From assembly GCA_049303675.1 (NCBI GenBank), contig JBAQNJ010000001.1, positions 344,711 through 408,710 of the forward strand: DNA of 64,000 nucleotides. The letters are read 5' to 3'. Position 1 is the first letter of the stretch, and each line of letters begins with the position of its first letter. Positions 7,093-62,262 of this stretch are shown here, piece after piece. The translations under genes were made by a program, and so were the position numbers. The stretch is from Microgenomates group bacterium. GTDB lineage: Bacteria > Patescibacteriota > Microgenomatia > UBA12405. The notes beneath the pieces were generated by a model. The model was not told where the DNA came from. It was given only the letters and a program-made list of their open reading frames with translations, and did not search any database.

Positions 7093-7124
7093 TTTCTTTT
7101 CTTAAATTTTCTTTGTTCTTGTTT

Positions 7125-7157
7125 CTGTTAAATTCTTAAATTCTGTTAAATTTTCTC
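7125..7157 (+). repeat. TCTGTTAAATT direct-repeat motif, copy R1
   Basis: tctgttaaattcttaaattctgttaaattttctc; near-identical to 13582-13615. Confidence 0.6.
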
Positions 7158-7158
7158 A

Positions 7159-9492
7159 TCACAGTTTCGCTCTCTTACCAATATCACTCTCCACAATCTC
7201 TCTCGGTCTCCCATATTTTAGACTCGACAATTTTTTAATCATCGCTGCCAATTCTGGATTCCCCGGTTTTTTTATTTCATCAGCCGTAATGTTGAGGGAG
7301 AATGGGGATTGAGGTATTCCATTGACCATAGTCTTCAAATAAGTGTGTCCTACTGGCAAATTCAGCAAATCATGTTCGTTAAATTCTGGCTTAAATTGGT
7401 TTACTAAGAAGCTGGCATCCGAGATACCTACTCGGAAGCTACAAATCGACCCCACGTTTCCAAAGACAGCGTTTTTAATCTCATCATCCATTTGGGAGAT
7501 AAACTGGTTGCCCACCGTCAAATTCAAGTGATATTTTCGCGCCTCTGACATGATCACCGCAAAGTCTTGAGTGGCAAAGTTTTGGAACTCATCCACGTAC
7601 AAATAAAAATCTTTTCGTAGTGGCTCTGGCGTGTCCTGCCGGCTCATAGCCGCAATCAGTATTTTGGGAATTAGCACCAGTCCGAGGAAGGCGGAGTTTT
7701 CTTCGCCGATACTTCCCTTGGCCAAATTAATAATCAGTATTTTCCCCTCATCCATGGCAGTGCGAAAATTAAACGAGCTCGTCGATTGTCCAATAATATT
7801 TCGCATCATGGTGTTGGTGATGAACCGTCCAAATTTAGAGACGATATAATCGAGCACTTCTGATTTATGAAACTCATTAGTGTTGGCAATTTGATCTGTC
7901 CAATAGCGTTTGACCATCGGGTCGTGAACTTTGGGCAATAATTGTTGGACAAATGATGGGTCAGTCAGACAGCGGACTATTTCAATAAAAGTCGCCCCAG
8001 GTTCGGCCATTACCGTCAACATAATATTACGGATAGCATGTTCAAACCGCGGTCCGACAATCCCTGTTTTGTACGGATCATACAGTTTATACATCAGGTT
8101 AATAATCGAGCTAGTCACAAAATCTTTTTGGTCTTCCCGCTCGCATTCCATCACATTAAATCCCATTGGTCTATCCACCATCCCTGGGTCAAAATAAATT
8201 ACATCCTCTACTCTTTCTGGTGGTATCCGCTCCAGTATCATTTCATAGGTATCATGAGGATCAATAAAACACACCCCCTTGCCCGCCTTAATATCTTGCA
8301 GTGCCATGTTGGCCAGTAGCCACGACTTTCCTACCCCAGTTTGCCCCACGATATAAAAGTGTCGTTGTCGGTCTTTGGTAGTGATATGGAATTTCTTTTT
8401 TATTCCTCGATAATGATTTTCTCCTATATATATCCCCTCAGCCGGGCTATCGGTGGGTGCTGGGGCATTCTTGGATTTTAGCCAATAAATATTTGGGGTT
8501 TGAATAGTTTTGTTGGGGAAGTGGAATATCGAGGCCACCTCATCCGCCGACAAAATAGTTTTATTTTTATACCAATAAATAATTGGGTATTTATAAATAT
8601 AATCGTCCAAAAACAATTTTTTCACCCAAATTTTTCGCGACGATAATTTACTCCATGGTGATTCAAATTGAGAAAAGCTGGCCTTAATATTCGACAAATT
8701 TCTCTTGGCTATTTCTTCGGTCGGGGCAAACGAGACTATTCGTATGGCAGTTTCAAATCCCACCCGACTCGACTTGCTATCAATCGCCTCCAGTTGCCTC
8801 GCATCTACTTTGTAGCTCGCTTTTTCCGGATTAGCCTCCGCTTTTTTGGTACTGGCCACAAAACCTTTACCATTTTTGGCCCACATCCCGTCAGTTGGTG
8901 ACAGCACTAGTTGTATGGCCACACTTTCGTTTGGACTCAGCTTCGACAGGGCCGAGGTCATCGCCGACAGGGGATCAGTGGCTATTTCTCGGTATGTTTT
9001 TAGGGGAATATAGGGTGCCTTTTTAATTCCCATCCACGCATACTCCGCCCTACCTTCCTCCGGATAGATATTTGGCTCTTCCACTTCCTCCACATTGGCC
9101 CCCGCATAGACGCTATAAATTTGTTTCTCTATAAAATCTTGGGTCTTTTTCGGTACACAGACATAAAATTTTATGTCCTCATTAGTACCAATTATTTCTA
9201 GCGACACGCTTGGTTGGGCCTGAAATCTTTGAAAAATTTTGAATTTAGCACTTTTATAGAGACTACCCATTGATCCAATAATCTGCTCCATGGCATCAAT
9301 TTTTATCTCATTATCCTCGGGCACAGCCACGAGTAGTGTTACCATCTCTAGGGCTTTTTCTTCACGATCCCGCCACTTGTACCACAGTACGAAGGCCGCT
9401 CCCAGTAGCCACAAGAGTAGGCCCACTAGGACTACTAGCATCATTACCATCAGAGCATTGGTAGCATAGGTCACCACTATATCTGTATTCAT
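7159..9492 (-). CDS. TraG/VirD4-like type IV coupling-protein-family ATPase (two N-terminal TM helices plus FtsK/HerA-type P-loop)
   Basis: 777 aa; N-terminal hydrophobic helices; Walker A GQTGVGKS; Walker B LYVDEFQNF; size and architecture typical of T4CP / DUF87 ATPases. Confidence 0.5.
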   Translation of the reverse strand: MNTDIVVTYATNALMVMMLVVLVGLLLWLLGAAFVLWYKWRDREEKALEMVTLLVAVPEDNEIKIDAMEQIIGSMGSLYKSAKFKIFQRFQAQPSVSLEIIGTNEDIKFYVCVPKKTQDFIEKQIYSVYAGANVEEVEEPNIYPEEGRAEYAWMGIKKAPYIPLKTYREIATDPLSAMTSALSKLSPNESVAIQLVLSPTDGMWAKNGKGFVASTKKAEANPEKASYKVDARQLEAIDSKSSRVGFETAIRIVSFAPTEEIAKRNLSNIKASFSQFESPWSKLSSRKIWVKKLFLDDYIYKYPIIYWYKNKTILSADEVASIFHFPNKTIQTPNIYWLKSKNAPAPTDSPAEGIYIGENHYRGIKKKFHITTKDRQRHFYIVGQTGVGKSWLLANMALQDIKAGKGVCFIDPHDTYEMILERIPPERVEDVIYFDPGMVDRPMGFNVMECEREDQKDFVTSSIINLMYKLYDPYKTGIVGPRFEHAIRNIMLTVMAEPGATFIEIVRCLTDPSFVQQLLPKVHDPMVKRYWTDQIANTNEFHKSEVLDYIVSKFGRFITNTMMRNIIGQSTSSFNFRTAMDEGKILIINLAKGSIGEENSAFLGLVLIPKILIAAMSRQDTPEPLRKDFYLYVDEFQNFATQDFAVIMSEARKYHLNLTVGNQFISQMDDEIKNAVFGNVGSICSFRVGISDASFLVNQFKPEFNEHDLLNLPVGHTYLKTMVNGIPQSPFSLNITADEIKKPGNPELAAMIKKLSSLKYGRPREIVESDIGKRAKL

Positions 9493-9872
9493 TCTTGTTT
9501 AAATTTTACATTACCTTTGTGCTTTTTTATTATTTTTAGCAAAAATGCTGACAGCCACATCCCCGTATCTGCCACTGTTTTTTGCAACCCTTCCAGAAAC
9601 GTTTTCCGAGTTGAGGGTAATATAATTCTTGGATCTTGTGTCGGGCTAGGTGTCAACATCGGAGTACCTGTATCATCGTGGACAGTTTTCATTTGAGTAG
9701 GGTCTTGTTCAATTTTTTGCAGCCAAGTTTTTATCTCAGTTGGTACCCTCGCGTTTGTTTCCCGTAGATCCTGCAATCCCTCGTGTTGTCCACGTTGTTC
9801 TATTCTGTTTTCAGATTTATCAATTCCGATTTCGAGTTTCTCGTTTCTCGTTTCTATTTTGGACTCTGCCAT
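9489..9872 (-). CDS. hypothetical protein, translationally coupled upstream of the ATPase
   Basis: 127 aa; 4-nt overlap with 7159-9492. Confidence 0.35.
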   Translation of the reverse strand: MAESKIETRNEKLEIGIDKSENRIEQRGQHEGLQDLRETNARVPTEIKTWLQKIEQDPTQMKTVHDDTGTPMLTPSPTQDPRIILPSTRKTFLEGLQKTVADTGMWLSAFLLKIIKKHKGNVKFKQE

Positions 9873-9907
9873 GTTTTAAGTATAAACCAAACTTCCTCTT
9901 TTCGTAG

Positions 9908-11032
9908 TTGTTATACTACTTTATTATGGCTCAAAACTATTCTTCCCGTGGCACCCCAGTTGTCACTATCTTGGCCATCGCTTTTCTGATTTTTTTGTCT
10001 GTCTGGTTTGTTCGCGGTGAATCATTTCGTCTCTACGCCAGCCTTTTTTTTGGACTCTATTATCTGACCAAGACTTCGTGGTTGTCAATTATTTTAGTTA
10101 GCATTGTTCAAAACATTTTTTTTCTGCCTTTTCGGATTATCTCTGAGCGTTTTTATGTCGATTTGAAGGATTTTGAACACGAACTCACCAAGTCGAAGGG
10201 GGACGAGCAGTCTTTTGTCTTGAAGAAGCAAATCCGCTCTGGTAACCTCTCGGTTATTTTTTACATCATCAATTTCGTTCTCTTCTTTATCGCCTTTATC
10301 TCGGCCGGCCGAGTCTTTTTCTTGGAGTTTTACCACACCCCCATTGCCCAGCACTGGCTCTATTCTTGGGTGCCTTACCCCACTTATCCACTGCAAGGAG
10401 TCATTTTTAATTTTCCTTTCTTTAGGGCCACTGGTACTTTTGCTCTGGAGTGGTGGACTATTGCCAAAATTTGGCTAATTCCCATTGGCATTCTCGCCCT
10501 TATCCGCATACTCTGGCGACTTATCAAACCCTTTATTTCCGGTAATCAAAAATTGTTGGAGACTCGTATCGGTATCAATCGTTTCAAACTCCTTACCTCT
10601 GGTTTTATGGGCACCATTTTTATTTTATCTCTCTATTTTTTCCGTCATGTTCCTACCGGTATTCAGTTTTATTGGCTCTCGGCCGATTTAAGTAAACAAA
10701 ATACAGTTTTCAATATTATCACTGCTATCTGTACAGCCTTTGCAGCAGTCTATGCTGGGGCTCAGCACAACAAAGAGACATCCATTGAGGCTCGCGTTCG
10801 CGGCATCCCCGAAGACATAATTACCCGAGTCAATCACGCCTATCTGCGCCAAAGTGTCAAAAATGGCATACTGCTTGGCATTTCCGCACTCATTGTTACC
10901 CGTCTTATGCCCTGTTCCCACGACTTATCAGTTCTGGCGTTCGAAGCACTCTATTTAATGTCCCCCATTACCTTTGATCTTCTAATTCCCAAAAAACGTG
11001 ATCGTCCTGTTCCTGCTACCACATCAACATAA
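9908..11032 (+). CDS. polytopic membrane protein, function unknown
   Basis: 374 aa with at least 8 hydrophobic segments; weak YidC-like N-terminal resemblance but no conserved insertase core seen. Confidence 0.35.
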   Translation: MLYYFIMAQNYSSRGTPVVTILAIAFLIFLSVWFVRGESFRLYASLFFGLYYLTKTSWLSIILVSIVQNIFFLPFRIISERFYVDLKDFEHELTKSKGDEQSFVLKKQIRSGNLSVIFYIINFVLFFIAFISAGRVFFLEFYHTPIAQHWLYSWVPYPTYPLQGVIFNFPFFRATGTFALEWWTIAKIWLIPIGILALIRILWRLIKPFISGNQKLLETRIGINRFKLLTSGFMGTIFILSLYFFRHVPTGIQFYWLSADLSKQNTVFNIITAICTAFAAVYAGAQHNKETSIEARVRGIPEDIITRVNHAYLRQSVKNGILLGISALIVTRLMPCSHDLSVLAFEALYLMSPITFDLLIPKKRDRPVPATTST

Positions 11033-11201
11033 TCTACTACTAGTCTCTATCTATCGGCCAAATTACAATTCCAAATTCATTCGTAATTCGCCTGTGCCCA
11101 TTTGGGTATAATTATTAATTCGTAATTAATTTATACGTCCCGATTCACCATATACTCCGCCACGGCAGAATGATATATTCATCATGTCCGACTAAACTTC
11201 T

Positions 11202-12251
11202 ATGGTAGACACAGACTTCATCAGTATTCTCAAAAATTATCGTGATTTAGTTTCCCCAGTAGTTCTCCGTTACCTAAGTGAATCACTCCAGTTTCCACAG
11301 TATTGTCAAATTGATCCAGCACACCAAGCAGAATTAGATTTCCAAGAAAAATTAATTAGTGAATATCCCCGTAGATTTGGTAAATATCTTCGCCCTTCTC
11401 TGGTCATGGCTACTGCGTTGGCCATGGGAGCCAAAACCGAAGCTGTTTTATTGACCGCTGCTGCCATGCAATTATCTGAGGAATGGATTCTCATTCACGA
11501 TGATATTGAAGATGATTCCGAGGAGAGACGTGGCTCACCTACACTTCAAAAGTTATTCAATGTTCCCCTTGCCGTCAACGCTGGCGATGCCCTACATGTC
11601 ATTATGTGGAAAATAATTGGAGATATTGATAACAAAAAAGTTTTCAATGAATTCTATCAACTGTTAAATCGGACAACTCTTGGCCAGACTATTGATATTC
11701 ATTGGAATACCCAAAACAAACTTGACATTACCGATGAAGACATTTTTCTAATACTTGAAAGCAAAACTTGCTATTACACCATTTCTGGTCCTATGAGGCT
11801 GGGAGCAATAGTTGCAGGATCTACCGATTCTCAACTAAATACAATATATCTATTTGGGCGATATCTTGGTCGTGCCTTTCAAATAATCGACGACATCCTC
11901 GACCTAACCTCTGATTTTGCCGGACTCAAAAAACAATCATTTAATGATATATACGAAGGCAAACGGACAATTCCTTTATCTCACCTATTAAAATTAGCCA
12001 ACGCTGAGGAATTATCCACTATCAAAAGTATTTATTCTAAGACTCGTGCTCAAAAATCAGAATCAGAGGTAGCTACAATAATTAATTTAATGAATAAATA
12101 TCATACTATTGATTCTGCCCGTGACATGGCCAAAAATTTTGCTCAAGCAGCCAAAAAAATGTTAAATGAAAAAATGTCTTTTATAAGAATTGAGCCGTAT
12201 CGTCATCAGCTTGAGACCGCAATTGATTTTATCGTCTCTCGCGACCATTAG
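11202..12251 (+). CDS. polyprenyl (isoprenyl) diphosphate synthase
   Basis: First DDxxD (ILIHDDIEDD) and second DDxxD (FQIIDDILD) motifs at the correct spacing. Confidence 0.8.
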   Translation: MVDTDFISILKNYRDLVSPVVLRYLSESLQFPQYCQIDPAHQAELDFQEKLISEYPRRFGKYLRPSLVMATALAMGAKTEAVLLTAAAMQLSEEWILIHDDIEDDSEERRGSPTLQKLFNVPLAVNAGDALHVIMWKIIGDIDNKKVFNEFYQLLNRTTLGQTIDIHWNTQNKLDITDEDIFLILESKTCYYTISGPMRLGAIVAGSTDSQLNTIYLFGRYLGRAFQIIDDILDLTSDFAGLKKQSFNDIYEGKRTIPLSHLLKLANAEELSTIKSIYSKTRAQKSESEVATIINLMNKYHTIDSARDMAKNFAQAAKKMLNEKMSFIRIEPYRHQLETAIDFIVSRDH

Positions 12252-12333
12252 TCACAAATTTCATCAATGTGTCTTTTGCATTCATAGGTATTTAGTCGAA
12301 TTTCACTATCATATCATTTGAATTTCATTATTG

Positions 12334-12366
12334 TCTGTTAAATTCTGTTAAATTGTTAAATTTTCC
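12334..12366 (+). repeat. TCTGTTAAATT direct-repeat motif, copy R2 (upstream of 12392 CDS)
   Basis: tctgttaaattctgttaaattgttaaattttcc. Confidence 0.6.
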
Positions 12367-12391
12367 TTTCTTTTTCTGTTATTCTTAATTA

Positions 12392-13579
12392 ATGCCTCAG
12401 AAAAAACCGGAGTATACAGTCACTTTTGGTGGCTGGTACCAGCGCACTACTCTTCATCTCACCGAAATTTATGATCTCTTCGCTCTCGGCCGTTCTGGGC
12501 TCAAGTTAGACTCTCAGAAACTCCAAGAATTACATCAAAATCTCAAATTTGTCTCCGTCACTCGCGAATGGGGAGATTTAGAATATATCGTTTGTCAGAC
12601 TCGGGAAGGTATTGCCGTCCGCTATTACGAAGACGGACTTTATGTCCTCTCCCTCAATACCAGCGATATTGCCGCCGGCCAACATACTCTTCGTCATTAT
12701 TTTGACACTTGTCTTTCTCCCGCTATTTCCTACATATTTTCTCTTGGCGCCCCCACTCCCAAAATTCTCGCCAAAATCAAACCCGATCACCCATTCGTTG
12801 TTTCGAGTATTAGCTCCCCTTCTTCAAGGGGAGGTGGTCGCCTCAGGCGACCGGAGGGGTTTGGTCCCATTTATTCCCAAATTACCAGTTCTCATATTAC
12901 AGTCTCCAAAACACCATCCACAATTTACATTTTTTCCCCCTCAAATTTTTCTCACCTTCGCGACTTAATTGAAATGCAAATATTCTTCCGTGAGTTCAAA
13001 GATCAGCTCCATCGTTACCTCAACCTTCACCGAGAAATCTGGGAAGAAATTTCCGATATCAAGGAGAGGGGAGTTATCATCGGTACCCAAATTGAGACCC
13101 TTCGTTCCCGCCTCGACTCCTATCAGAAGACTATCAATCTCATCAAAAGTCGCCTCAATCAAATGGGCGCCTATGTCCACACCCGCGCCTCTCTGGCTCG
13201 CAAGTTGTCTCTCGAAGATCAACTGGCTTCTGTTTTCCAATACAAGTTCGAGACTCTCTCCGATACTCATTCTTATGTTCAGGAAATTTGGAAAATGACT
13301 CAGGATTATGTCGAAACGGCCATTGCTGTGGTCAATGAAGTCAAGGGTCGCAGTAGTAGCAACGGTATCAATTCTCTTCGACTAATCACCACCATTGGTG
13401 TCCTCTCGGGTATTTTTAGTTATTTGAGCAAGGATACTTTTCCCGTTTTTACCTGGATCGGTCTCTGGTACTTTCTCATTTTAGTTATCGGTACCTATCT
13501 TATTGATCAATTAGTTTCCTCAACTTACAAAAAATATCGTTATCAACTCAAGTTCGCCAACAATCAGGGAATTAAATGA
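12392..13579 (+). CDS. hypothetical protein with C-terminal TM helices, carrying an in-frame insertion of GC-hairpin element copy B
   Basis: 395 aa ORF; residues SSRGGGRLRRPEGFG are the translation of the 12825-12862 element. Confidence 0.4.
   Translation: MPQKKPEYTVTFGGWYQRTTLHLTEIYDLFALGRSGLKLDSQKLQELHQNLKFVSVTREWGDLEYIVCQTREGIAVRYYEDGLYVLSLNTSDIAAGQHTLRHYFDTCLSPAISYIFSLGAPTPKILAKIKPDHPFVVSSISSPSSRGGGRLRRPEGFGPIYSQITSSHITVSKTPSTIYIFSPSNFSHLRDLIEMQIFFREFKDQLHRYLNLHREIWEEISDIKERGVIIGTQIETLRSRLDSYQKTINLIKSRLNQMGAYVHTRASLARKLSLEDQLASVFQYKFETLSDTHSYVQEIWKMTQDYVETAIAVVNEVKGRSSSNGINSLRLITTIGVLSGIFSYLSKDTFPVFTWIGLWYFLILVIGTYLIDQLVSSTYKKYRYQLKFANNQGIK
12825..12862. repeat. GC-rich hairpin element copy B (caaggggagg-TGGTCGCCTCAGGCGACC-ggaggggttt), inside a CDS
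   Basis: Same mirror G-rich arms as copy A; central hairpin sequence differs but its pairing is preserved. Confidence 0.6.
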
Positions 13580-14685
13580 ATTCTGTTAAATTTTTAAATT
13601 CTGTTAAATTTTCTCAGTTTTTTCCCGCCATCTTTCTCATGTTCATGGGCACTGTTGGTTCAGGTATCTTTGTCCTGCCCTATTTATTTTCTCAGTCCAA
13701 TTTTATTTTTGCCTCGGTTTTTTTAGTCTTTCTGACTATCATCACTGCAGTTCTTAACCAGTTTTATGTCGCAATTGTCACCACTACTGCTGGCGATCAC
13801 CAGCTCTCTGGCTATGCCCAAAAATATTTAGGTCATCGCTTTGGACTTCTCGCCAGTCTCAACTTATTGATTCTTGCCTTTGGCGCCATTTTGGCCTATT
13901 CCAAGCTCTTTTCCGGCTTTACCCTAGTCGTTTTTCCCAATTTCTCTATTTATCTAATCTCTTTTTTATATTTATTAATCATTTTTGTTTTATTTTATTT
14001 TCACCAAATTTTATCCAAAAATATATTTCTCCTCATCCCCATTTTTATTTTAGTGGTTCCCATATTTCTTTATTTTTATTCTTTTAACTATCCACTATTA
14101 ACTATTAACTATTCACTATCAATTACCCCCTCCTTCTCCTTCTTTGGTCCTCTTCTCTTTGCCCTTTCTGGATTTACCATTATTCCCGAGGTCAGGGAAA
14201 CTCTCGGTACTCCCAAAAAGTTGTCACTAGTTGTTACCCTTGGGTTACTCTTAGTAGCCATCATTTATTTTCTCTTCGCTTTTTCTATTATCCGACTAAG
14301 TGGCGACTCCCTGAATATCGATTCGGTTACTGGGCTAGCCACCTCTTTTCCCTTATTAGCCAAATTAATCGCCATTTTTGGCATGGTAATTACTCTCCGA
14401 TCCACGGTAAACTTTATGGTCATTTTACGCGAGTTATTTTATCGTGATCTCAAGGTATCTTTACCCATAGCCAATCTATTACCATCACTCTTTCCCTTGT
14501 TGGGTTTGTTGCTGACAACAGTTTCTCTACTGACTGTCATCTCTTTGACTGGCCATTTTACTATTTTCGTCTCAGCCCTAGTTATTTGTCTTATCCGTCT
14601 GCGGCTTCCCCATAGCTTTTGGACAGAGTTTTGGGCAATATTAATTATGCTAACCCTTACCCTCGGATTAGTCATTGCCCTATGA
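13576..14685 (+). CDS. polytopic membrane transporter (APC/amino-acid-permease-like); true start probably 13639
   Basis: About 11 hydrophobic segments; GSGIFVLPY motif near the N-terminus. Confidence 0.4.
   Translation: MNSVKFLNSVKFSQFFPAIFLMFMGTVGSGIFVLPYLFSQSNFIFASVFLVFLTIITAVLNQFYVAIVTTTAGDHQLSGYAQKYLGHRFGLLASLNLLILAFGAILAYSKLFSGFTLVVFPNFSIYLISFLYLLIIFVLFYFHQILSKNIFLLIPIFILVVPIFLYFYSFNYPLLTINYSLSITPSFSFFGPLLFALSGFTIIPEVRETLGTPKKLSLVVTLGLLLVAIIYFLFAFSIIRLSGDSLNIDSVTGLATSFPLLAKLIAIFGMVITLRSTVNFMVILRELFYRDLKVSLPIANLLPSLFPLLGLLLTTVSLLTVISLTGHFTIFVSALVICLIRLRLPHSFWTEFWAILIMLTLTLGLVIAL
13582..13615 (+). repeat. TCTGTTAAATT direct-repeat motif, copy R3
   Basis: ttctgttaaatttttaaattctgttaaattttctc; lies in the annotated 5' end of ORF 13576-14685, whose real start is probably ATG 13639. 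Confidence 0.6.
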
Positions 14686-16252: not shown

Positions 16253-16267
16253 AATCAAGGGAAACTA

Positions 16268-16808: not shown

Positions 16809-17927
16809 TCAAGGCCATGCCTGCCGGCAGGCAGGGGAGAAGCCGCGAAGCGGAGAGGGGTTTATCGCCCAGAGTATCATCCCCGCTGCCCAGGCAAAGG
16901 GGTGTTCGGCAGTATACAGTTTTCTTTTTACCGATTTTCCATTTCTTTCATAGCACTCATAAATTATTTTGTCATCTACAATTTTTTGACTTATATTTTG
17001 AATTATTTTTAGAGCTTCTTTATTTTTACCTACTCTGCTTAGGGCCACTATATAGGCAGTAATTGTCTGCCACCACAATATCCCTTTATTTTGGTAATCA
17101 GGGATTCCTACTATTCTTTGCAGGATATCCACTCGCCACCACGGATACTTTGGACTATTTGTCTCCATCGAAAAATTAGCCAGCGTCTTCTGGCACTCGG
17201 CCAAAATACTCTTACTTTCCTCACCAGTCGTTAGTCCCCAAATTATAGCCAGACAATTTCCAAAAGGATACAAATAATCTTCTCTCTTATAGTCGTGCCA
17301 GTCAGCCAAATATTTCCCATTCCATAGTTTCTCTCTTATATTTTTAGCTATGTCTTTTTCTTTGGACTTGTTTAAATCCTTATATATTTTCCAATAAATT
17401 ATATTGGTGTAGAGTAGGTGTCCCCACTTCCACACCGCATCATTCCATTCGGCCATTGGCCCATCCCATAGTAGTCCATTCTTTTCTTTAGACGACAAAT
17501 ATTTTAGGGATTTATCGATATTTTTCTTATATTTATCTTTATCAACATGTATCGCCAGCAGGGTTATTAGTGTCGTTCCATCTAGCACCTCCTGACCCAG
17601 CCCTCTCAACTTATATGTTGGTCGCGGTGTTTTATAAAACTTTGGTTTACCAAAATATTTACCCATATTTAGTGGCCCGTTCATTATCCGGTAGGGGACC
17701 ATGCCATCCTCCCGTTGGAACGAGAAAAATAGATCCACCATTTTTATGACTATTTCCCTATCCCCGATTTCCAGCGACCCGAGGGCCGCGAAAAATCCAT
17801 CTCTGGCCCAATAATCAGTAAAGTGATGTCCGCCCGCCACAACACCCTCACTCCGATAGCAATCCCTCAAATTTTTCTTGGCTATTTCTCTGGCCTCTGC
17901 CACCATATCCATTCTAAAGTCTAACAT
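16809..17927 (-). CDS. glycoside-hydrolase-like (six-hairpin / GDE_C-like) protein
   Basis: 372 aa; HFTDYWARDGFFAALGSLEIGD motif reminiscent of amylo-alpha-1,6-glucosidase / GH63-like domains. Confidence 0.4.
   Translation of the reverse strand: MLDFRMDMVAEAREIAKKNLRDCYRSEGVVAGGHHFTDYWARDGFFAALGSLEIGDREIVIKMVDLFFSFQREDGMVPYRIMNGPLNMGKYFGKPKFYKTPRPTYKLRGLGQEVLDGTTLITLLAIHVDKDKYKKNIDKSLKYLSSKEKNGLLWDGPMAEWNDAVWKWGHLLYTNIIYWKIYKDLNKSKEKDIAKNIREKLWNGKYLADWHDYKREDYLYPFGNCLAIIWGLTTGEESKSILAECQKTLANFSMETNSPKYPWWRVDILQRIVGIPDYQNKGILWWQTITAYIVALSRVGKNKEALKIIQNISQKIVDDKIIYECYERNGKSVKRKLYTAEHPFAWAAGMILWAINPSPLRGFSPACRQAWP
16810..16865. repeat. GC-rich hairpin element copy C (larger relative: caagg-GCCTGCCGGCAGGC-aggggagaa-GCCGCGAAGCGG-agaggggttta)
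   Basis: G-rich arms caagg / gaggggttt resemble copies A and B; two GC hairpins; supplies the C-terminal residues of the minus-strand ORF 16809-17927. Confidence 0.45.
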
Positions 17928-18571
17928 TTATATTCATCTTTTCCCCAGTTTTCTACGTTATTCATAATATATTTTTTCGTTGCCAAATAATGTTTTTTGT
18001 CTTTAATAATTTCATCATAATATCCTGTTTGCCATCCAAATAATATTTTATTTTGGTTGGCATATCTCGATACCGCCGATTTGTACTGTTGAATAATTTT
18101 TGGAATCATCTGTTTTGACTTCACACTTAAATATCCCATGCTTTTGTTTTGTAGAGACGCCATATATGGCGTCTCTACTGAATTATCAACACGCGTCTCT
18201 ACTGAATTAAAAACCTTCGTCTCTACTGAATCTCTAGTACACATGTTCAGTGAATCATCAGTATTCGCCACTATTGAACACGCATTAGTTACCTCGATCA
18301 ACATATGTATATGGTTTGGCATGACAGCAAATGCACAAATTATTATATTTGGAAAATGTTTTGGAATTTCAATCAAATATTGTTTTGCTATTTCTCCTAT
18401 TTTTGAAAACACCATCTTATTATTTTCAATTTTTCCCAGCGATCTATCATGTTTCCATGTACAAATTGTTATATGGTAATAACCGTTACTGGAATAGTCC
18501 CACGATTCCAACCTTGCCGATCTTATTTTATATCTCTCATCAAATGTGTCCAAATGATCATCATCGATCAT
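17921..18571 (-). CDS. REP-associated tyrosine transposase (RAYT / IS200-family TnpA, HuH-Y1), with an in-frame REP insertion
   Basis: HuH motif MPNHIHMLIEV and catalytic Tyr region FGWQTGYYDEIIKD...YIMNN. About 50 residues between them (DSVETKVFNSVETRVDNSVET...) are the translation of the palindrome/direct-repeat cluster at 18148-18235. Confidence 0.7.
   Translation of the reverse strand: MIDDDHLDTFDERYKIRSARLESWDYSSNGYYHITICTWKHDRSLGKIENNKMVFSKIGEIAKQYLIEIPKHFPNIIICAFAVMPNHIHMLIEVTNACSIVANTDDSLNMCTRDSVETKVFNSVETRVDNSVETPYMASLQNKSMGYLSVKSKQMIPKIIQQYKSAVSRYANQNKILFGWQTGYYDEIIKDKKHYLATKKYIMNNVENWGKDEYKC
18148..18235. repeat. REP-like cluster 1: palindrome GTAGAGACGCCATATATGGCGTCTCTAC plus three CGTCTCTACTGAAT direct repeats
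   Basis: Palindrome at 18151-18178; repeats at about 18170, 18193 and 18218; inside the RAYT ORF. Confidence 0.75.
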
Positions 18572-18600
18572 GTATTTATCTTATTCCTTTTTTGTAGAGA

Positions 18601-18682
18601 CGCGCCATGGCACGTCTCTACTGAATATCAAACGTCTCTACTGAATATCAAAACCAACGTCTCTATAGATTCACCAATTTTC
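18601..18682. repeat. REP-like cluster 2: palindrome GTAGAGACGCGCCATGGCACGTCTCTAC plus 20-nt direct repeats (CGTCTCTACTGAATATCAAA x2, third copy degenerate)
   Basis: Palindrome at 18604-18631; about 30 nt upstream of the RAYT start. Confidence 0.75.
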
Positions 18683-19312: not shown

Positions 19313-19406
19313 TTGACATTAGAAAATTGCGCCCAAAGGAAGTCCACTTGGGGGAATTAAAAATTATAAATTAAAAATTAAAAATTAGATTGCGGTAGAA
19401 TACCCT

Positions 19407-22671: not shown

Positions 22672-22959
22672 AAACTACCATGTTAAAATCACAAGACCAC
22701 TCTCCAAAAGTTCCTTTTACAATATTTCAGTATGGTTTTCGACGCATTGATTTACTATCCAGTAGTCAGATATCTCAGCCGGTCACAAATACAAAAACAA
22801 TTGGTAGATTAGAAATTAAAATCACAAAAACTCCAGTAGTTGTAGATGGTAATGTCTCTCTGGGAGACTATGAATCGATACCCTGTGTCGATACAAAAAT
22901 TATCTGTAGATTGCTACCTCCCAAGGTAAGTAATTTTGGAATTTAGAATTGTTTTTTTC

Positions 22960-22987
22960 TGATCACTGATCACTGATCACTAATCAC
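22960..22987. repeat. tandem heptamer (TGATCAC)x3 + TAATCAC spanning the stop of the minus-strand gene
   Basis: ctgatcactgatcactgatcactaatcac; each unit carries a GATC. Confidence 0.6.
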
Positions 22988-23425
22988 TAGCTCTATCTCC
23001 ACCATCTCTCCATTCTCCAATCTTCTTTTTGTCCCTGTAATCAAATAAGTCATCATCTGAATCGCGAGTAGGTGGCTGACCACTAGTATAGTCTCGCCTT
23101 GTTTGTGATCAAACTTCACATCATCCAAAAACAATTCTATTCTGGCTTTCAATTTTTCATAGTTTTCCCTTTTGTGTTTTGGGCCGACTAGGCTAGTTAG
23201 ATGTATCGGCATATTATCCTCTCTTAGTCGCAATATTTCATCCAAAGTTTGCACACATCTTGGCTTTGAAGAACAATATATTGCATCAATTTTTTGTTCA
23301 ACTAGTTTTTCTCCCACTGATATAGATTGTTTCACTCCTGCCGCCGTTAAATTATTTTCACTACCGGCCACTTTATAGCCTCTGTTATGCGCCGACTCCC
23401 CGTGGCGAATCAATATTAGTTTCAT
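22970..23425 (-). CDS. histidine phosphatase (phosphoglycerate-mutase-like) family protein
   Basis: LILIRHGESAHN (RHG motif) at the N-terminus. Confidence 0.6.
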   Translation of the reverse strand: MKLILIRHGESAHNRGYKVAGSENNLTAAGVKQSISVGEKLVEQKIDAIYCSSKPRCVQTLDEILRLREDNMPIHLTSLVGPKHKRENYEKLKARIELFLDDVKFDHKQGETILVVSHLLAIQMMTYLITGTKRRLENGEMVEIELVISDQ

Positions 23426-23495: not shown

Positions 23496-24104
23496 TTATA
23501 TCTTCACTCCCATTTTATTTAGTTCTTCCAAAAACTGCTCAAAATCTTTATAGACAAAAGCACAAATTCCCACTTCCTTGGCCGCAGCCACCGATGGCTC
23601 ATAATCATCAGCCAGCGCAATTTCATTGGCCGCGACCCCAGATTTTTTCACCAATTCCTCATACAAACCCTTTTCCGGTTTATTAATTCCAATTTCATAC
23701 GACAATGCGAAGGCATCAAAATTATCTAAAAATCCAAATCGCTTATGCAATCCGTTTATCCTCGCTGGAAAATTACTACTACAAATTAATGTTTTATATC
23801 CATTGTTTCTGACCCTTCTCACAATTTCGGCCACATACTCATTTACTTCATAGCCACTTATTAGCAAATCAATTAGTTCAGCTGGCTTAGCCTCTATTTT
23901 CCACTCGCTCGCCGCCCAGTTCCAAAATTCTCCATCATTCATTTTTCCAGTTTTATATAGTATATTCATTTGCTCGCTTTTAAGGAACACTCTTTTAGCC
24001 TCGTCTTCACTTATGCCATATTTCTCGCCCAAATTCTTGATAAAGTTTTCCTTACCCTTGAGAAAATAGACTCCGTCAAGGTCAAAAGTTATCGCTTTTA
24101 TCAT
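23496..24104 (-). CDS. HAD-superfamily hydrolase
   Basis: Motif I ITFDLDGV at the N-terminus; 202 aa. Confidence 0.65.
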   Translation of the reverse strand: MIKAITFDLDGVYFLKGKENFIKNLGEKYGISEDEAKRVFLKSEQMNILYKTGKMNDGEFWNWAASEWKIEAKPAELIDLLISGYEVNEYVAEIVRRVRNNGYKTLICSSNFPARINGLHKRFGFLDNFDAFALSYEIGINKPEKGLYEELVKKSGVAANEIALADDYEPSVAAAKEVGICAFVYKDFEQFLEELNKMGVKI

Positions 24105-25358: not shown

Positions 25359-25690
25359 TCCCCTGTAGCTCAATGGTAGAGTGCCCGCCTGTTCCTTATC
25401 GAGCAGCTTTTTATCGTAAGGTAGATCGAATAATTGGGAGAATTGCGTGAAACCTAACTTTTGAAGTAATTCAAAACATGGCAACCCGCAGCCGCGCTTT
25501 TGTCAAGACAATGGAGGGCTTTGCCACTCCGAAGCCTTGGCGAAGGAGGGTTCAGAGACTAGGTGATTACACCCTAGAGCACCCAAATCCCGATGAAATA
25601 TCGGGATATGATATAGTCCAAGCCTCATAGAAATTTGAGGGTTACTTGTAAGCGGTTGGTTCGTGGTCCGAGTCCACGCGGGGGAGCCAT
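25359..25690 (+). tRNA. tRNA-Asn(GTT) interrupted by a group I intron (exons 25359-25392 and 25650-25690, CCA encoded)
   Basis: 5' half TCCCCTG-TA-GCTC-AATGGTA-GAGT-G-CCCGC-CTGT; 3' half TAA-GCGGT-TGGTT-CGTGG-TCCGAGT-CCACG-CGGGGGA-G-CCA. Spliced anticodon loop CUGUUAA. Acceptor and discriminator G resemble bacterial tRNA-Asn. Confidence 0.7.
25393..25649 (+). ncRNA. group I self-splicing intron (257 nt) in the tRNA anticodon loop
   Basis: 5' exon ends in U and the intron ends in G. P7-like strands GUUCAGAGACUAG ... AUAUAGUCCAAGCC resemble cyanobacterial tRNA-Leu introns. Candidate internal guide sequence GAGCAGC pairs with the exon end CUGU. Confidence 0.65.
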
Positions 25691-43425: not shown

Positions 43426-44316
43426 ATGAAAAAAACTATCTTACTTGCCTCCGTCCTTTTGTCCTCATTATTTGTTGTCAAACCCTCGTTGGCTGCTACA
43501 GTCTGTAATGACGTATTAGATCAGCAACAGTTGCTCCGAAACGGAGGAATTAGTGCTCGCACTCTCCTCGGCTACAAAGTTGGACAGTCTTTTACTGCCA
43601 GTGCTACCGGAATTCTTTCAAAAATTGAAATAGGTTTCTACAATGAGTTCAACCCAACAGGTACTATAGACATATATGAAGGTAATGGTATTAGTGGAGC
43701 ACTCCTATCTACCCAACATGTTAACGGTGGATACTGCCTCATGGCAGACTGTAGTGCACCATTTACAGTTAGTGCCCCAGTAGTTGCCGGTCAAATATAT
43801 ACTTTCGTATTTACCCCAGATGCAGGGATGTCGGACCCATTCTTAATTTCACTTTCTAGTTTCAACCCCTATTTAGGCGGTGAAATGATCCAGGTGGATA
43901 CTGCTGGTGTCTATTTTCTCAGTAAATACAATTATGATATGAAATTTTCAACCTACATTCAGGACGTGACCTGTAGCGTCGCTCCAACTGTCGCTCCAAC
44001 TGTCGCACCAACTGTCGCTCCAACAGTCGCTCCAACTGTCGCTCCAACTGTCGCTCCAACTGTCGCTCCAACAGTCGCTCCGACTATTACTCCAACTCCT
44101 ATTGCTAGTACCGGCAAAAAAGTTGAGTCAAAAGGTAAAATCTCAGCAGTCACTGATAATTCAGTCACAGTCAACGGTATTCTTCTCCGCTTACTGCCTG
44201 AGACAGTTATTAAAATGAATTATGCTCCAGCCTTTGCCATTGGCCAAAGAGTCGAATACAAGGGTATTCTCAACACCGATGGATCAGTCAATCTTTCCAA
44301 GATAGAGATAAGATAA
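43426..44316 (+). CDS. secreted protein with (APTVA)n linker repeat
   Basis: Signal peptide MKKTILLASVLLSSLFVVKPSLA; 15-nt tandem repeat gtcgctccaactgtc x10 or so at 43975-44095. Confidence 0.45.
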   Translation: MKKTILLASVLLSSLFVVKPSLAATVCNDVLDQQQLLRNGGISARTLLGYKVGQSFTASATGILSKIEIGFYNEFNPTGTIDIYEGNGISGALLSTQHVNGGYCLMADCSAPFTVSAPVVAGQIYTFVFTPDAGMSDPFLISLSSFNPYLGGEMIQVDTAGVYFLSKYNYDMKFSTYIQDVTCSVAPTVAPTVAPTVAPTVAPTVAPTVAPTVAPTVAPTITPTPIASTGKKVESKGKISAVTDNSVTVNGILLRLLPETVIKMNYAPAFAIGQRVEYKGILNTDGSVNLSKIEIR

Positions 44317-44445: not shown

Positions 44446-45123
44446 ATGCAGATTTTAATTATCGAGGACGAGGTCAAGCTGGCGCAATCCATCAAGAGGG
44501 GGTTAGAGCAAAGCGGCTATTCTGTCCAGATGGTTCACGATGGTCAGGAGGGGTTGGAAGAAATTGAAATAAACCACACTGAGTACGACCTAGTTATCTT
44601 AGATCTCAATTTGCCCAATCTCACCGGTATCGAAATCTGTCAATCAGTCCGCAGCCAAGATATCAAAATTCCTATCATTATGCTCACTGCCCGCGATACA
44701 GTAGAGGACAAGGTCGCCGGTCTCAACAGTGGTGCTGATGACTATTTAGTCAAGCCCTTTTCGTTCATTGAGCTACTGGCCCGAGTCCGCTCCTTGCTTC
44801 GTCGGCCTGCCGCCATTTTATTTACCAAATTATCAGCCGGTCAAATTATTCTCGATCCCACAAATCAAAGGGTTTGGCGTACCAACGATGAAATTAAGCT
44901 GACTTCTCGAGAGTTTTCCCTTTTAGAATATCTAGTTCGCAACAAGGGGCGCATCGTCCCCCGCGAGGAAATTTTGTCCCATGTTTGGGATCAATCTTTT
45001 GATCCAGCCTCAAATGTCATCGATGTTCACATTACCAATTTAAAGAAAAAAATCAGCGGCAATACCGACAATGATCAAATTATCAAAACTATTCGTGGCT
45101 CCGGCTATAGAATCGACGACTAA
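44446..45123 (+). CDS. OmpR-family response regulator
   Basis: Receiver domain (DLVILDLNLP, phospho-accepting Asp context) plus winged-helix C-terminus (IRGSGYRI). Confidence 0.85.
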   Translation: MQILIIEDEVKLAQSIKRGLEQSGYSVQMVHDGQEGLEEIEINHTEYDLVILDLNLPNLTGIEICQSVRSQDIKIPIIMLTARDTVEDKVAGLNSGADDYLVKPFSFIELLARVRSLLRRPAAILFTKLSAGQIILDPTNQRVWRTNDEIKLTSREFSLLEYLVRNKGRIVPREEILSHVWDQSFDPASNVIDVHITNLKKKISGNTDNDQIIKTIRGSGYRIDD

Positions 45124-55946: not shown

Positions 55947-55947
55947 C

Positions 55948-57124: not shown

Positions 57125-57195
57125 CTATAGTCTGGAATTATAGCAAATATAGTTATGGCAAGAATAGTCGGTTTGCGGTATCCTAACTAATAATT

Positions 57196-57651: not shown

Positions 57652-57656
57652 ACTTT

Positions 57657-58097: not shown

Positions 58098-58099
58098 TT

Positions 58100-58648: not shown

Positions 58649-58669
58649 TTTTCAGCCCCTCTTCAGTCT

Positions 58670-59359
58670 TTGGACTATAATAGGGCCATGAGAATCCTTG
58701 TCATCGAAGACGAACATCGTATCGCCCAATCAATCAAAAAGGGCCTAGAACAGGAGCATTATGCTGTCGATGTCGCTTATGACGGTCTTGACGGTTATGA
58801 TCTAGCCACTACCGAAGAATATGATTTAATCCTTTTAGACCTAATGTTACCCAGCAAAGATGGTCTGTCTATTTGCCGTGATCTTCGTGGTCAAAAAATA
58901 AATATTCCCATACTGATGCTCACCGCCCGTGGCCAAACTGATGACAAAATTACTGGTCTCGATGCTGGTGCCGATGATTATCTCACCAAACCATTTTCCT
59001 TCGATGAACTATTGGCGCGCATTCGTGCTCTTTGTCGTCGCCCAGCACCAGCCTTATCAACGGTGCTAGCAGTCGGTGATCTCACTTTGGACACTACCAA
59101 CTACTTAGTCACTCGCCGTGGAGTCAATATTAAATTATCCGGCAAAGAGTATTCCTTACTCGAGTTTTTCATGCGTCACCCTCATCAAATTCTTCGCAAA
59201 GAGAGAATCATCGGCCATGTTTGGGACTACGACTCCGACATCCTCCCCAATACAGTTGAAGTCTATATCAAAAATCTTCGTCACAAAATTGATACCCCTT
59301 TTCCCCACCAAAAACCTCTATTTACTACCATTCGTGGTTTTGGTTATCGATTAGGATAA
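58670..59359 (+). CDS. OmpR-family response regulator
   Basis: Receiver domain plus winged helix (TIRGFGYRL). Confidence 0.85.
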   Translation: MDYNRAMRILVIEDEHRIAQSIKKGLEQEHYAVDVAYDGLDGYDLATTEEYDLILLDLMLPSKDGLSICRDLRGQKINIPILMLTARGQTDDKITGLDAGADDYLTKPFSFDELLARIRALCRRPAPALSTVLAVGDLTLDTTNYLVTRRGVNIKLSGKEYSLLEFFMRHPHQILRKERIIGHVWDYDSDILPNTVEVYIKNLRHKIDTPFPHQKPLFTTIRGFGYRLG

Positions 59360-59361
59360 TT

Positions 59362-60339
59362 ATGTTTAAATCAGCCAGAATCAAATTAACCAGTTGGTAT
59401 TTACTTATAATTATGGTTATTAGTATTGCCTTTAGTGTTTTTATCTACCAGTTAATTTCCTTTGAAATATATCGTTTTGCTCGGGCTCAGCGTGGTCGTT
59501 TTGAGAGTCGACTCTACATCAATACTCCTGTAGAAATGGACCTAATCTTCGAAACCCAGCATCGTCTCCTCTTGTCTCTTATTGTTATCAACAGCACTAT
59601 CTTTGCCATTTCTGGGACACTCGGTTATTTTCTCGCCGGCAAGACTTTAGCCCCGATCCAAAAAATGGTCGATGATCAAAATCGTTTTATCTCCGATTCT
59701 TCCCACGAATTTAGGACTCCACTTACAGCCCTTAAATCATCACTTGAGGTAAATTTGCGCGACAAAAAAATGACTCTATCCGCCGCCCGTCGACTAATGA
59801 GGGACAACATTATTGAAGTCAACAGTCTTCAGGCACTCTCTGATGGTTTGCTTCAATTGACTCAGTATCAGCAGGTCAAAATAAATTTTCACCCACTCGA
59901 TATTTACGATGTTATCCAAAAATCTATCGACAAAATCTCGCCTCTAGCCCATCATAAAAAAATCACTCTTAAAAATAAAACAATTCACCAACAAGTCATG
60001 GGGGACATTTATAGTCTCACCGATTTGTTTGTAATTTTATTAGACAATGCCATCAAGTATAGTCCCCCAAATTCTTCCATAAAAATTACATCCCTCACCA
60101 AAAACAAAAATTTATTAATCTCAGTCCAAGATCAGGGGCAGGGGATCGCCCCCACCGACGTCCCCCATATCTTTGATCGCTTTTATCGATCCGATACCAG
60201 TCGCACCAAATCTGAGGTTACTGGTTTTGGACTTGGGTTATCAATTGCCCAGAACATAGTTGATAATCACCACGGTACCATCAAAGTTGATAGTCAATTA
60301 AATCACGGTAGTACCTTTATTATTTCCTTACCATTATGA
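59362..60339 (+). CDS. sensor histidine kinase
   Basis: SHEFRTPL H-box, NAIKYS, DQGQGI, GFGLGLSIA. Confidence 0.8.
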   Translation: MFKSARIKLTSWYLLIIMVISIAFSVFIYQLISFEIYRFARAQRGRFESRLYINTPVEMDLIFETQHRLLLSLIVINSTIFAISGTLGYFLAGKTLAPIQKMVDDQNRFISDSSHEFRTPLTALKSSLEVNLRDKKMTLSAARRLMRDNIIEVNSLQALSDGLLQLTQYQQVKINFHPLDIYDVIQKSIDKISPLAHHKKITLKNKTIHQQVMGDIYSLTDLFVILLDNAIKYSPPNSSIKITSLTKNKNLLISVQDQGQGIAPTDVPHIFDRFYRSDTSRTKSEVTGFGLGLSIAQNIVDNHHGTIKVDSQLNHGSTFIISLPL

Positions 60340-61547
60340 AATTACCTAATAAAAAAATAGTTATCGGTTTAATCTTTTTAATCGCCATTTATTTTGGCTC
60401 CAAATATTTTTTTACATCATCTAGCTCCGCTCCCACCTATCAAATAGCCAATGCAGAAAAAGGCAGCCTCATCATTAACCTGTCTACTTCAGGGTCAGTC
60501 GCTGCTACCAATAGTCGGACTGTTACCACCACTGCCTCAGGTGTCGTCAAAAAAGTCTACGTCAAGGAGGGACAGGCAGTCCGTACTGGTACTCCAATCA
60601 TGTTAATCGAGCTAGATCTCAATGGAACTCAAAAACTATCATCAGCATATTCATCCTATCTATCCGCCCAAAATAGTTACAAATCTACTCAGGACAAAAT
60701 TTATTCACTCCAGAGTGATCTAGTTTCTGCCAAAAATATTTTCGACAATCAGTGGGCCGGCCAATCTCCCAACGATCCTACCTACATCCAAAAACACAAT
60801 GCCCTTTTGTCCGCCCAAGCCGCCTACGACAATTTACAAAATAGTCTTCGTCAGGCTAGTTCGGCGCTTGAGTCAGCCCGCTTGTCTTATCAAATGGCTA
60901 GCGCTACAGTCTATGCCCCCATTTCCGGTACAGTCTCAGCCATTTCTCTCGCTTCTGGCATGATTCTCAATCCCACTAGTGATACTGCCAATAGCAGTAA
61001 TGTCGCCAACAAAATTGCCATTGTCAAAACCAGTGCCACTCCAGCAATATCTGTTTCTCTCACCGAGACTGATGTCACCAAAGTGAAGGTTGGTCAAAAA
61101 GCCACCATTACCCTCGACGCCCTTCCTGAAAAAACTTATACCGGCAAAGTTATCGCAGTTGACACCAGTGGTACTGTTAGTTCGGGAGTTGTCTCCTACA
61201 CCACTACTATTCAGTTGGATACCAATGTCGATGAAATATTGTCCAACATGTCCGCCACCGCCAGCATTATTACTGATATCGTTGATGATGCCATTTTGGT
61301 TCCCTCTAGCGCGGTAGTTACCGTCAATGGCCAAACTGTAGTACGTCAATTAATCAACAAAGTATTGACCAACATTGAGGTACAAGTTGGCAAAAGCAAT
61401 GGCACTCTAACCCAAATTATTTCTGGCATCAATGATGAGGACTCAGTAGTTACCAGCATCACTACACCCAGTACTACCAGTAAATCTACTACAGGTACTT
61501 CGGTATTTAGTTCCCCTATGGGCAGTGGCAGTCGTATCGGTCGTTAA
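60336..61547 (+). CDS. HlyD/MacA-family periplasmic adaptor
   Basis: N-terminal TM, coiled-coil, beta-barrel/lipoyl-like segments; precedes the ABC ATPase. Confidence 0.55.
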   Translation: MKLPNKKIVIGLIFLIAIYFGSKYFFTSSSSAPTYQIANAEKGSLIINLSTSGSVAATNSRTVTTTASGVVKKVYVKEGQAVRTGTPIMLIELDLNGTQKLSSAYSSYLSAQNSYKSTQDKIYSLQSDLVSAKNIFDNQWAGQSPNDPTYIQKHNALLSAQAAYDNLQNSLRQASSALESARLSYQMASATVYAPISGTVSAISLASGMILNPTSDTANSSNVANKIAIVKTSATPAISVSLTETDVTKVKVGQKATITLDALPEKTYTGKVIAVDTSGTVSSGVVSYTTTIQLDTNVDEILSNMSATASIITDIVDDAILVPSSAVVTVNGQTVVRQLINKVLTNIEVQVGKSNGTLTQIISGINDEDSVVTSITTPSTTSKSTTGTSVFSSPMGSGSRIGR

Positions 61548-61548
61548 T

Positions 61549-62214
61549 ATGATCAAATTAATCAATATTTCCAAGGTCTACCAAAATGACAGCGTCAAGA
61601 CTGTAGCTCTAACCGATATTTCTTTTCATATAAAAAAAGGCGATTTTGTGGCTATCATGGGTCCATCTGGTTCGGGTAAATCTACCTTAATGCATATTTT
61701 GGGGGCCCTCGATACCCCCACCGCAGGTGAATATTTATTAGATGGTATCTCAGTTGCCAAACTAAATGATGATCAGCTATCCGAAATTCGTAATCAAAAA
61801 ATTGGCTTTATTTTTCAAGCATTCAATTTATTACCCCGAACTACCGTTCTCAAAAATGTCATGTTACCCATGGCCTATGCTGGAATCGAGGCAGACAAAC
61901 GTGAAGAAATTGCCCTAAAGTACATCAAACTAGTTGGTCTCTCGGATAGGATCAACCATACTAGCAATCAATTATCCGGCGGCCAGCAGCAACGAGTTGC
62001 CATTGCCAGATCACTAGTTTTGAATCCCAAAATAATTCTGGCCGATGAGCCTACCGGTAATATTGCCTCAGATCAGGCCGAGCAAATCATGGCTATATTT
62101 AAAAAACTAAATCAAGAGGGTCATACAGTTATCATGATTACTCATGAGCCCGACATCGCCGCCCATGCCCATCGTATTATTCACATCCGTGACGGCAAAA
62201 TCTCCAAAAATTAG
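61549..62214 (+). CDS. ABC transporter ATP-binding protein (MacB/LolD type)
   Basis: Walker [10 protein letters not shown], signature LSGGQQQRV, Walker B ILADEPTG. Confidence 0.85.
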
Positions 62215-62224
62215 AATTATTTTT

Positions 62225-62262
62225 TAAATTATTAAATTCCGTTAAATTATTAAATTTTATTA
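62225..62262 (+). repeat. degenerate copy R4 of the TTAAATT direct-repeat motif, directly upstream of the permease gene
   Basis: ttaaattattaaattccgttaaattattaaattttattaa. Confidence 0.45.

Follow-up and report, generated by a model that had tools for sequence, protein, structure and literature searches.

Short AT-rich direct repeats recur at four loci, always on the same strand, in a 64,000-nt stretch of the genome of a Microgenomates group bacterium (contig JBAQNJ010000001.1, positions 344,711 to 408,710; hereafter the window). Our comparison of these arrays, designated R1 to R4, with the corresponding regions of related genomes suggests that they form one lineage-specific AT-rich repeat family, which would have originated in an arm of an intervening-sequence-like cassette and then spread through ectopic copying, with slippage altering array length. 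We assign a probability of about 55% to this explanation. The four arrays are as follows.

R1, 7123..7158, + strand: a 36-nt block with three TTAAATT units (7128, 7136 and 7146), antisense to both neighboring genes.
R2, 12334..12366, + strand: three units (12338, 12348 and 12356), 29 nt 5' of ATG 12392.
R3, 13581..13616, + strand: a 36-nt block that forms codons 2-13 (NSVKFLNSVKFS) of the permease-like gene 13576-14685.
R4, 62219..62266, + strand: four full units (62224, 62232, 62242 and 62250) followed by TTAAATG, which contains a start codon.

Tandem arrays were called at all four loci by Tandem Repeats Finder (TRF). The TTAAATT clusters extend over 7124-7152, 12334-12362, 13582-13610 and 62224-62266, on the + strand in every case, as a preliminary description of this DNA had reported. 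The basic unit is about 10 nt long (TCTGTTAAAT), and because some units are shorter by 2 nt, the TTAAATT cores lie either 8 or 10 nt apart: 8 and 10 in R1 and R3, 10 and 8 in R2, and 8, 10 and 8 in R4. The sequence TGTTAAATT, which matches TGnTAnnnT, is present seven times across R1-R3. The 11-mer TCTGTTAAATT has six exact copies, all on the + strand (7124, 7142, 12334, 12344, 13582 and 13600), and TCCGTTAAATT, with one mismatch to it, lies on the same strand at 62238; the copies are spaced by 18 nt in R1 and R3 and by 10 nt in R2, instead of the 17 nt given in the preliminary description. Taken alone, the number of 11-mers with at most one mismatch is not significant (seven seen against 3.2 expected, with 6 of 100 shuffles reaching seven), and the core TTAAATT occurs 30 times on the + strand and 18 times on the - strand of the window. 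Adjacent pairs of the core (TTAAATT-N1-3-TTAAATT), by comparison, number nine, all of them on the + strand and confined to the four loci, whereas 300 third-order Markov simulations gave 0.023 on average. A second count, of arrays with at least three AAATT units at 7-10 nt spacing, gave five in the window against 0.18 expected, the fifth being a heptamer array 5' of dnaG. The four same-strand clusters are therefore real and non-random, and the evidence for them is the clustering, not the 11-mer count. These counts cover the 64,000-nt window, which contains no - strand array anywhere; scanning roughly 9 kb beyond each end revealed no additional arrays.

The origin that we propose for the family follows from R1 and its surroundings, which include three further features.

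Isolated unit CTTAAATT, 7101..7108, + strand: 9 nt away from the four-helix-bundle start codon.
Four-helix-bundle gene, 6736..7092, - strand: PF05635 23S_rRNA_IVP and TIGR02436; the open reading frame (ORF) of the intervening-sequence-like cassette.
T4CP/HerA-like ATPase gene, 7159..9492, - strand: DUF8128 and DUF87; its stop codon (7159-7161) adjoins R1.

The four-helix-bundle gene matched Pfam PF05635 with E = 7e-16, TIGR02436 with E = 8e-22 and the structure PDB 2rld. The 66 nt that separate the stop codon of the T4CP-like gene from the start codon of the four-helix-bundle gene (7092) are taken up by R1, and both genes lie on the - strand; they are co-directional, not divergent as had been stated. 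Relatives were compared as syntenic contigs (L121, L123, L250, L251, L252, L253, L254 and L255, plus the P0010 contig). Orthologs of the four-helix-bundle gene at the same position share 70-85% identity, with 85% for the protein of L253, and all five lineages with the gene have an AAATT-core array in the T4CP-gene spacer, in the same orientation. The number of units differs: three and the isolated one in the window, two in L253, 3+4 in both L254 and L255, and four of the variant TGAAATT in L252. Neither of the two lineages without a four-helix-bundle gene at this place (L121 and L250) has an array at the R1 position.

L252 and L255 carry a second, inverted array just 3' of the four-helix-bundle stop codon, situated between convergent gene ends, and their complete cassettes span 445 and 478 nt. 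The inverted arms around the ORF are 45 nt long and 80% complementary in L252, and 35 nt long and 86% complementary in L255; in both they are predicted to pair as a terminal stem in the minimum-energy and the centroid RNA folds (z = -2.6 for L252). The distal arm is absent in the window, L253 and L254, where other genes such as APH occupy that place. In all five lineages the cassette sits between protein-coding genes, for a tyrosine recombinase and the T4CP-like ATPase. On the strength of this comparison, R1 is best described as the conserved proximal (5') arm of an intervening-sequence-like cassette outside rRNA. With regard to miniature inverted-repeat transposable elements or other transposons, the inverted arms are found in L252 and L255 only, the cassette contains no transposase, and the flanks are themselves repeats, obscuring target-site duplications. 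Relatives of PF05635 were also sought in viral contigs to test how general such flanking arms are, and none was confirmed; very little literature was found on PF05635 beyond rRNA or diversity-generating retroelements.

The interval from the tyrosine recombinase to the T4CP-like gene varies among lineages (4664-7092 in the window, 3875-4119 in L121, 1621-2050 in L252 and 3667-5171 in L253). It holds an 80-aa gene only in L121, the cassette only in L252 and L255, and the cassette together with an APH phosphotransferase gene and small ORFs in the window and L253. About 220 nt from R1, in the 3' portion of the T4CP-like coding region, GTTAAATTCTGGCTTAAATT at 7378-7397 (+) resembles a two-unit array with 12-nt spacing.

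R3 is almost identical to R1. The two blocks agree at 35 of 36 nt (7123-7158 against 13581-13616, 97%), a single difference where two over 34 nt had been counted before, and they have sharp boundaries and share both the 8/10 order of units and the 3' flank, TTTTCTCA. Because the identity includes the unit arrangement and the flank, it points to ectopic copying, through gene conversion or template switching at TTCTG/TTTT microhomologies, and not to independent slippage; copying presumably proceeded from an R1-type array to R3. Relative to the orthologs of the permease-like gene, R3 is a translated insertion of 9-10 residues. Alignment with L252 (ATGAATCCTG-CG-TTTTTATCC) shows some 30 additional nt, in frame, after ATGAATTCTG in the window, and L254 retains one unit, ATTCTGGTAAATT, at the R3 junction.

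The preliminary description held that ORF 13576-14685 starts too early and proposed 13639 instead. The orthologs argue for 13576. Seven of them share the N-terminus M-x(2-4)-F-L-S-A-I-F-L-Q-F-x-G-T-V-G, and the residues opposite the window ATGs 13639 and 13645 vary (Q/I/M and S/T/M, respectively). Upstream of the conserved N-terminal block there is no other ATG, GTG or TTG in frame, and ATG 13576 overlaps the upstream stop codon as ATGA. Since the ortholog N-termini are conserved and the block has no other in-frame start before it, we place the gene start at ATG 13576. We also considered whether R1 and R3 could be att-type direct repeats at the ends of a 6.4-kb island. This candidate was rejected, as the gene order (T4CP, 127-aa gene, 368-aa gene, polyprenyl synthase, R2 gene, R3 gene, MFS, dnaG and sigma-70) is conserved in relatives without these repeats.

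R2 and R4 appear to be diverged copies, located in promoter-proximal and intercistronic spacers, and any effect on promoters or RNA is putative. The last TAAATT of R2 lies 17 nt 5' of a putative extended -10 box, TGTTATTCT (12377-12385), which corresponds to -35 spacing, and the box is followed by N6-ATG. This box is conserved in relatives as TGCTAATCT. The TTAAATT array is absent at the R2 position from five relatives (L121, L123, L250, L251 and L252), of which L121 and L123 carry a different short repeat, CTAAAGTTCCAAAGTTC, at this place. The polyprenyl synthase gene 5' of R2 (11202-12251, +, in the window; 8828-9889, -, in L121) has opposite orientations in two groups of contigs, the window, L250 and the P0010 contig on the one hand and L121, L123, L251 and L252 on the other, and because of this inversion between lineages the R2-bearing spacer can be regarded as a rearrangement junction. 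R4 fills the whole 49-nt spacer between the stop codon of an ABC ATPase gene (62214) and the start of a MacB-type permease gene (62264), within an operon of response regulator, histidine kinase, YknX, ABC and MacB genes, and is identical in two further assemblies. Its last full unit gives TAAATT-N7-ATG(62264), the distance expected of a leaderless promoter.

A further array of the same repeat class as R1-R4, built from a different unit, precedes dnaG.

dnaG array, 19355..19387, + strand: AATTAAA repeated 4.7 times, a heptamer with AAATT core, directly 5' of the dnaG -10 box (TAGAAT-N5-ATG).

L251 has an analogous array 5' of dnaG, composed of G[AT]AATTN units upstream of 8716. More generally, heptamer tandem arrays are frequent in the intergenic DNA of the clade (window, L121 and L251): CTGATCA is repeated 4.3 times between convergent genes at 22959-22988 of the window, and AATTCCT 17.7 times at 7504-7627 of L121. 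A coding tandem repeat of 12 nt, GTCGCTCCAACT, is present in ten copies at 43978-44097 (+) of the window, within ORF 43426-44316.

The exact arrays appear to be lineage-specific with respect to the public collections that were scanned, namely GTDB species representatives, JGI metagenomes and IMG/VR, from which the source genome is absent. The TTAAATTNTTAAATTCYGTTAAATT pattern had no match in IMG/VR or in the GTDB representatives (the source genome not being among these), and only two chance matches in JGI metagenomes, on contigs of 16-19% GC. The loose pattern TTAAATT-N1-3-TTAAATT-N1-3-TTAAATT yielded unrelated AT-rich viral contigs among the IMG/VR matches listed, and CTGTTAAATT-N0-8-CTGTTAAATT was taxonomically scattered among the matches listed for GTDB representatives. 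Neither known RNA families nor intrinsic terminators were found at R1-R4.

These results would be consistent with the following history. R1 would be the founding and conserved copy, the tandem-repeat 5' arm of a selfish cassette with a PF05635/TIGR02436 ORF. The transcript of a complete cassette, as predicted for the relatives, would enclose the ORF in an A-U-rich terminal stem of 35-45 bp, a layout like that of 23S rRNA intervening sequences, whose stems RNase III cuts; by analogy, RNase III may cleave the cassette stem too. In the window the distal arm would have been lost, with APH and further genes now in its place, and slippage would have altered array length, which ranges from two to seven units among the five lineages. 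R3 would be a recent near-exact copy of R1, placed in frame right after ATGAATTCTG of the permease-like gene, and R2 and R4 older, diverged copies. The likeliest present role of the solo arrays, if they have any, would be that of AT-rich promoter-proximal DNA, since the genes are mostly of leaderless type (TGnTAnnnT 5-9 nt before ATG) and TGTTAAATT fits this box. Among the 70 genes of the window, with motifs scored 4-9 nt before the start codon, TAnnnT precedes 36, TGnTAnnnT 14 and a Shine-Dalgarno-like motif two, which suggests that gene starts here are mostly leaderless; a literature search found no paper on leaderless promoters in Patescibacteria.

Several observations weigh against this history. 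No inverted partner for R1 was found in 6400-7400, the window cassette therefore has a single arm, and the stem mechanism cannot work in cis here. Arrays persist without a partner arm, and are even longer in L254, which implies that something besides cis pairing maintains or regenerates them. The fold energy of L255 is no better overall than that of shuffled sequences (z = -0.84). The cassette is not in rRNA, and no rRNA was found in the window. Searches of the window and flanks with tblastn gave no PF05635 gene near R2, R3 or R4, whose link to the cassette is one of sequence identity only. Finally, heptamers such as CTGATCA and AATTCCT are common, and a background generally prone to slippage could account for part of the pattern.

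Of the other explanations, it seems unlikely that the arrays are selected promoter cis-elements, acting either as tandem extended -10-like boxes (TGnTAAATT) or as an UP-like A-tract that recruits RNA polymerase to leaderless genes. The unit does fit the TGnTAnnnT box of this genome (compare TGTTAAAAT before genes 22970-23425 and 23496-24104), and most arrays are sense-oriented and upstream of starts. The TAAATT-N7-ATG of R4, the -35 spacing between the last unit of R2 and TGTTATTCT-N6-ATG, and the AAATT arrays that abut -10 boxes 5' of dnaG (window and L251) and, in L121, at the R3 junction would also suit such a role. However, R1 and every R1 ortholog face away from the gene in front of which they stand; in L252 and L255 the distal arms separate convergent gene ends, a position that requires no promoter; and most of the relatives' orthologous promoters are without arrays. 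R3 is within a coding sequence and has no start codon at leaderless distance. The distance from unit to start is 28-29 nt in R2 and R3, R1 has no downstream + strand gene, and the placement of a TGnTAnnnT box 4-9 nt before a start is seen only in the final complete unit of R4 (TAAATT-N7-ATG, lacking TG); a consensus promoter scan gave no + strand sigma-70 site in R1-R3. A promoter role suits R2 and R4, which sit where promoter DNA is expected, and the dnaG-type arrays, but not R1, which faces away from its gene, the relatives' distal arms, or R3, which is translated. We consider it quite improbable that the units are sites for a sequence-specific DNA-binding protein, with an OmpR-type response regulator or the four-helix-bundle protein as candidates. 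Direct repeats with a conserved 7-nt core, the same core at the R1 site in four lineages, and the position of R4 inside the response regulator, histidine kinase, YknX, ABC and MacB operon would be compatible with operators, and the variant TGAAATT in both L252 arms with co-evolution with a binding protein. The two OmpR-type regulators named in the preliminary description are indeed encoded in the window (44446-45123 and 58670-59359), but nothing links the arrays to them: neither regulator operon (44446 and 58670) is preceded by an array, and R4 is found at the boundary of the ATPase and permease genes instead of at the operon promoter. Instead of a fixed 10-11 bp phasing, the units show alternating spacings of 8 and 10 nt, with 7 nt in relatives; the R2 site is unconserved in five relatives and R3 remains only as a single unit in one. 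RNA pairing or homogenization accounts just as well for the co-variation of the arms, and R1, the only copy conserved across relatives, tracks the four-helix-bundle gene and not the two-component system. The suggestion that the repeats are iterons was rejected, as the clustered 17-22 bp repeats expected beside a rep gene or AT-rich origin were not found: the units are of 8-10 nt and dispersed over 55 kb, with no rep gene nearby and no GC-skew switch.

It is very improbable that the arrays are independent neutral microsatellites, each produced by in-place slippage of AT-rich promoter-like DNA, with no function and no shared origin. Such a process would be in keeping with the many unrelated 7-12 nt tandem repeats of the window and relatives, with the lineage specificity of the exact arrays, and with head-to-tail units whose number differs between lineages (two in L253 against three in the window at the same site). 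Nevertheless, an identity of 35/36 between R1 and R3, with the same unit arrangement and the 3' flank TTTTCTCA, is not plausible as a product of two separate events, one unit type occupies four loci on a single strand, an array stands at the R1 site in 5/5 lineages with the four-helix-bundle gene against 0/2 without it, and the arms of L252 and L255 are inverted and matched. Independent slippage is already disfavored by these points. We also find it hard to credit that the arm pair was split to act in trans, with R1 RNA (- strand, within the mRNA of the T4CP-like and four-helix-bundle genes) pairing with + strand transcripts of R2-R4. R1 RNA is complementary to R3 over 36 nt (35 Watson-Crick pairs and one G-U), with a predicted duplex energy of -47.8 kcal/mol against -15.9 +/- 3.7 for shuffles. 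The duplex would cover codons 2-13 of the permease-like gene, and R1 RNA is partly complementary to R4, near the MacB permease start, and to R2. This complementarity is not evidence of function, because it arises automatically from direct DNA repeats in opposed transcription units. If pairing in trans did occur, the duplexes would be RNase III substrates and could couple the cassette transcript to three membrane/transporter genes; it would account for the presence of all copies on one DNA strand although the genes at R1 face the opposite way, and would mimic in trans the cis pairing of the relatives' arms. Alternatively, and in a related way, the four-helix-bundle protein, a homolog of the nucleic-acid-binding Avd of diversity-generating retroelements, may bind the repeats.

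If the arrays do descend from a cassette arm, as we favor, intervening-sequence cassettes, composed of a four-helix-bundle ORF flanked by pairing arms, would not be restricted to rRNA genes and, in bacteria of the Candidate Phyla Radiation (CPR), would occur between protein-coding genes. Copies of their slippage-prone AT-rich arms would introduce new sequence at gene starts, in one case as a translated N-terminal insertion, and would thereby offer a concrete source of lineage-specific promoter-proximal repeats in very small genomes, as well as a handle on the function of the widespread PF05635 family. For annotation, the start of gene 13576 should not be shifted on account of R3, nor should the arrays be labeled response-regulator boxes.

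Other features of the window include two group I introns (Rfam RF00028) at 3060-3292 (+; 78.6 bits) and 25381-25640 (+; 60.1 bits), both of which interrupt tRNA genes; after their removal in silico, ARAGORN calls a tRNA-Leu-like gene and a second tRNA over the joined exons. Palindromes similar to repetitive extragenic palindromic (REP) sequences (GTAGAGACGCC...GGCGTCTCTAC) are present in tandem copies at 18147-18236 and 18590-18652, on both sides of gene 17921-18571 (-), which encodes an IS200-like/RAYT-like Y1_Tnp protein (Pfam E = 9e-8); the same palindrome is found in L254, 5' of the ortholog of the R2 gene. GC skew on the + strand is -0.1 to -0.25 over nearly the whole window regardless of gene orientation, and near zero or positive at about 26-38 kb.

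The repeats share individual traits with several known systems. Operators of the OmpR/PhoB type consist of direct repeats, as in the pho box CTGTCAT-N4-CTGTCAT, and resemble our arrays in the direct repetition of a core of about 7 nt beginning with CTGT and, for R2, in a 10-nt period and an array that overlaps the -35 region. They differ in that the spacing here is irregular (8/10 nt), no array stands at the promoters of the regulators, and orthologous promoters show no conservation. UP elements or phased A-tracts that precede sigma-70-type promoters are likewise comparable to the A/T-rich AAATT tracts at -35 to -60 of R2 and dnaG, and extended -10 boxes (TGnTATAAT) to TGTTAAATT, which fits TGnTAnnnT; unlike these promoter elements, R1, R3 and the relatives' distal arms have the wrong orientation or position, and the period is not helical. 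The short tandemly repeated repetitive (STRR) heptamers of cyanobacteria, like other families of dispersed intergenic repeats, are short, head-to-tail and scattered, with no known function. The arrays described here are similar in having 7-10 nt units arranged head to tail, mostly in intergenic DNA, at several loci and in a lineage-specific manner, and dissimilar in having only 3-5 units per array, in that one array is translated and one is tied to a mobile-looking cassette, and in the restriction of the window copies to one strand.

The closest parallel that we propose is with 23S rRNA intervening sequences. Elements of this kind that carry an S23p (four-helix-bundle) ORF have been described in Coxiella, Leptospira, Brucella and Xanthomonas (PMC4990558). 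That of Coxiella is 428-444 nt long, with the S23p ORF in the loop and terminal inverted repeats that form a 28-bp stem cut by RNase III, and has tandem heptamers of variable copy number (GACAGAT, two to three copies) just 5' of the ORF (PMC4990558). The cassettes reported here differ in lying outside rRNA, between protein-coding genes, and in arms that consist wholly of A/T-rich tandem units of 7-10 nt; moreover, the window copy retains the proximal arm only, and solo arrays of the repeat are present at a further three gene starts. Excision by RNase III is putative here, by analogy with the rRNA elements. The two nevertheless have the same ORF family (PF05635/TIGR02436) and similar sizes (445-478 nt in the relatives against 428-444 nt in Coxiella). 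They are also alike in the terminal inverted repeats predicted to form a stem around the ORF, in L252 and L255 though not in the window, and in the variable short direct repeats immediately 5' of the ORF, which number two to seven units across the five lineages.

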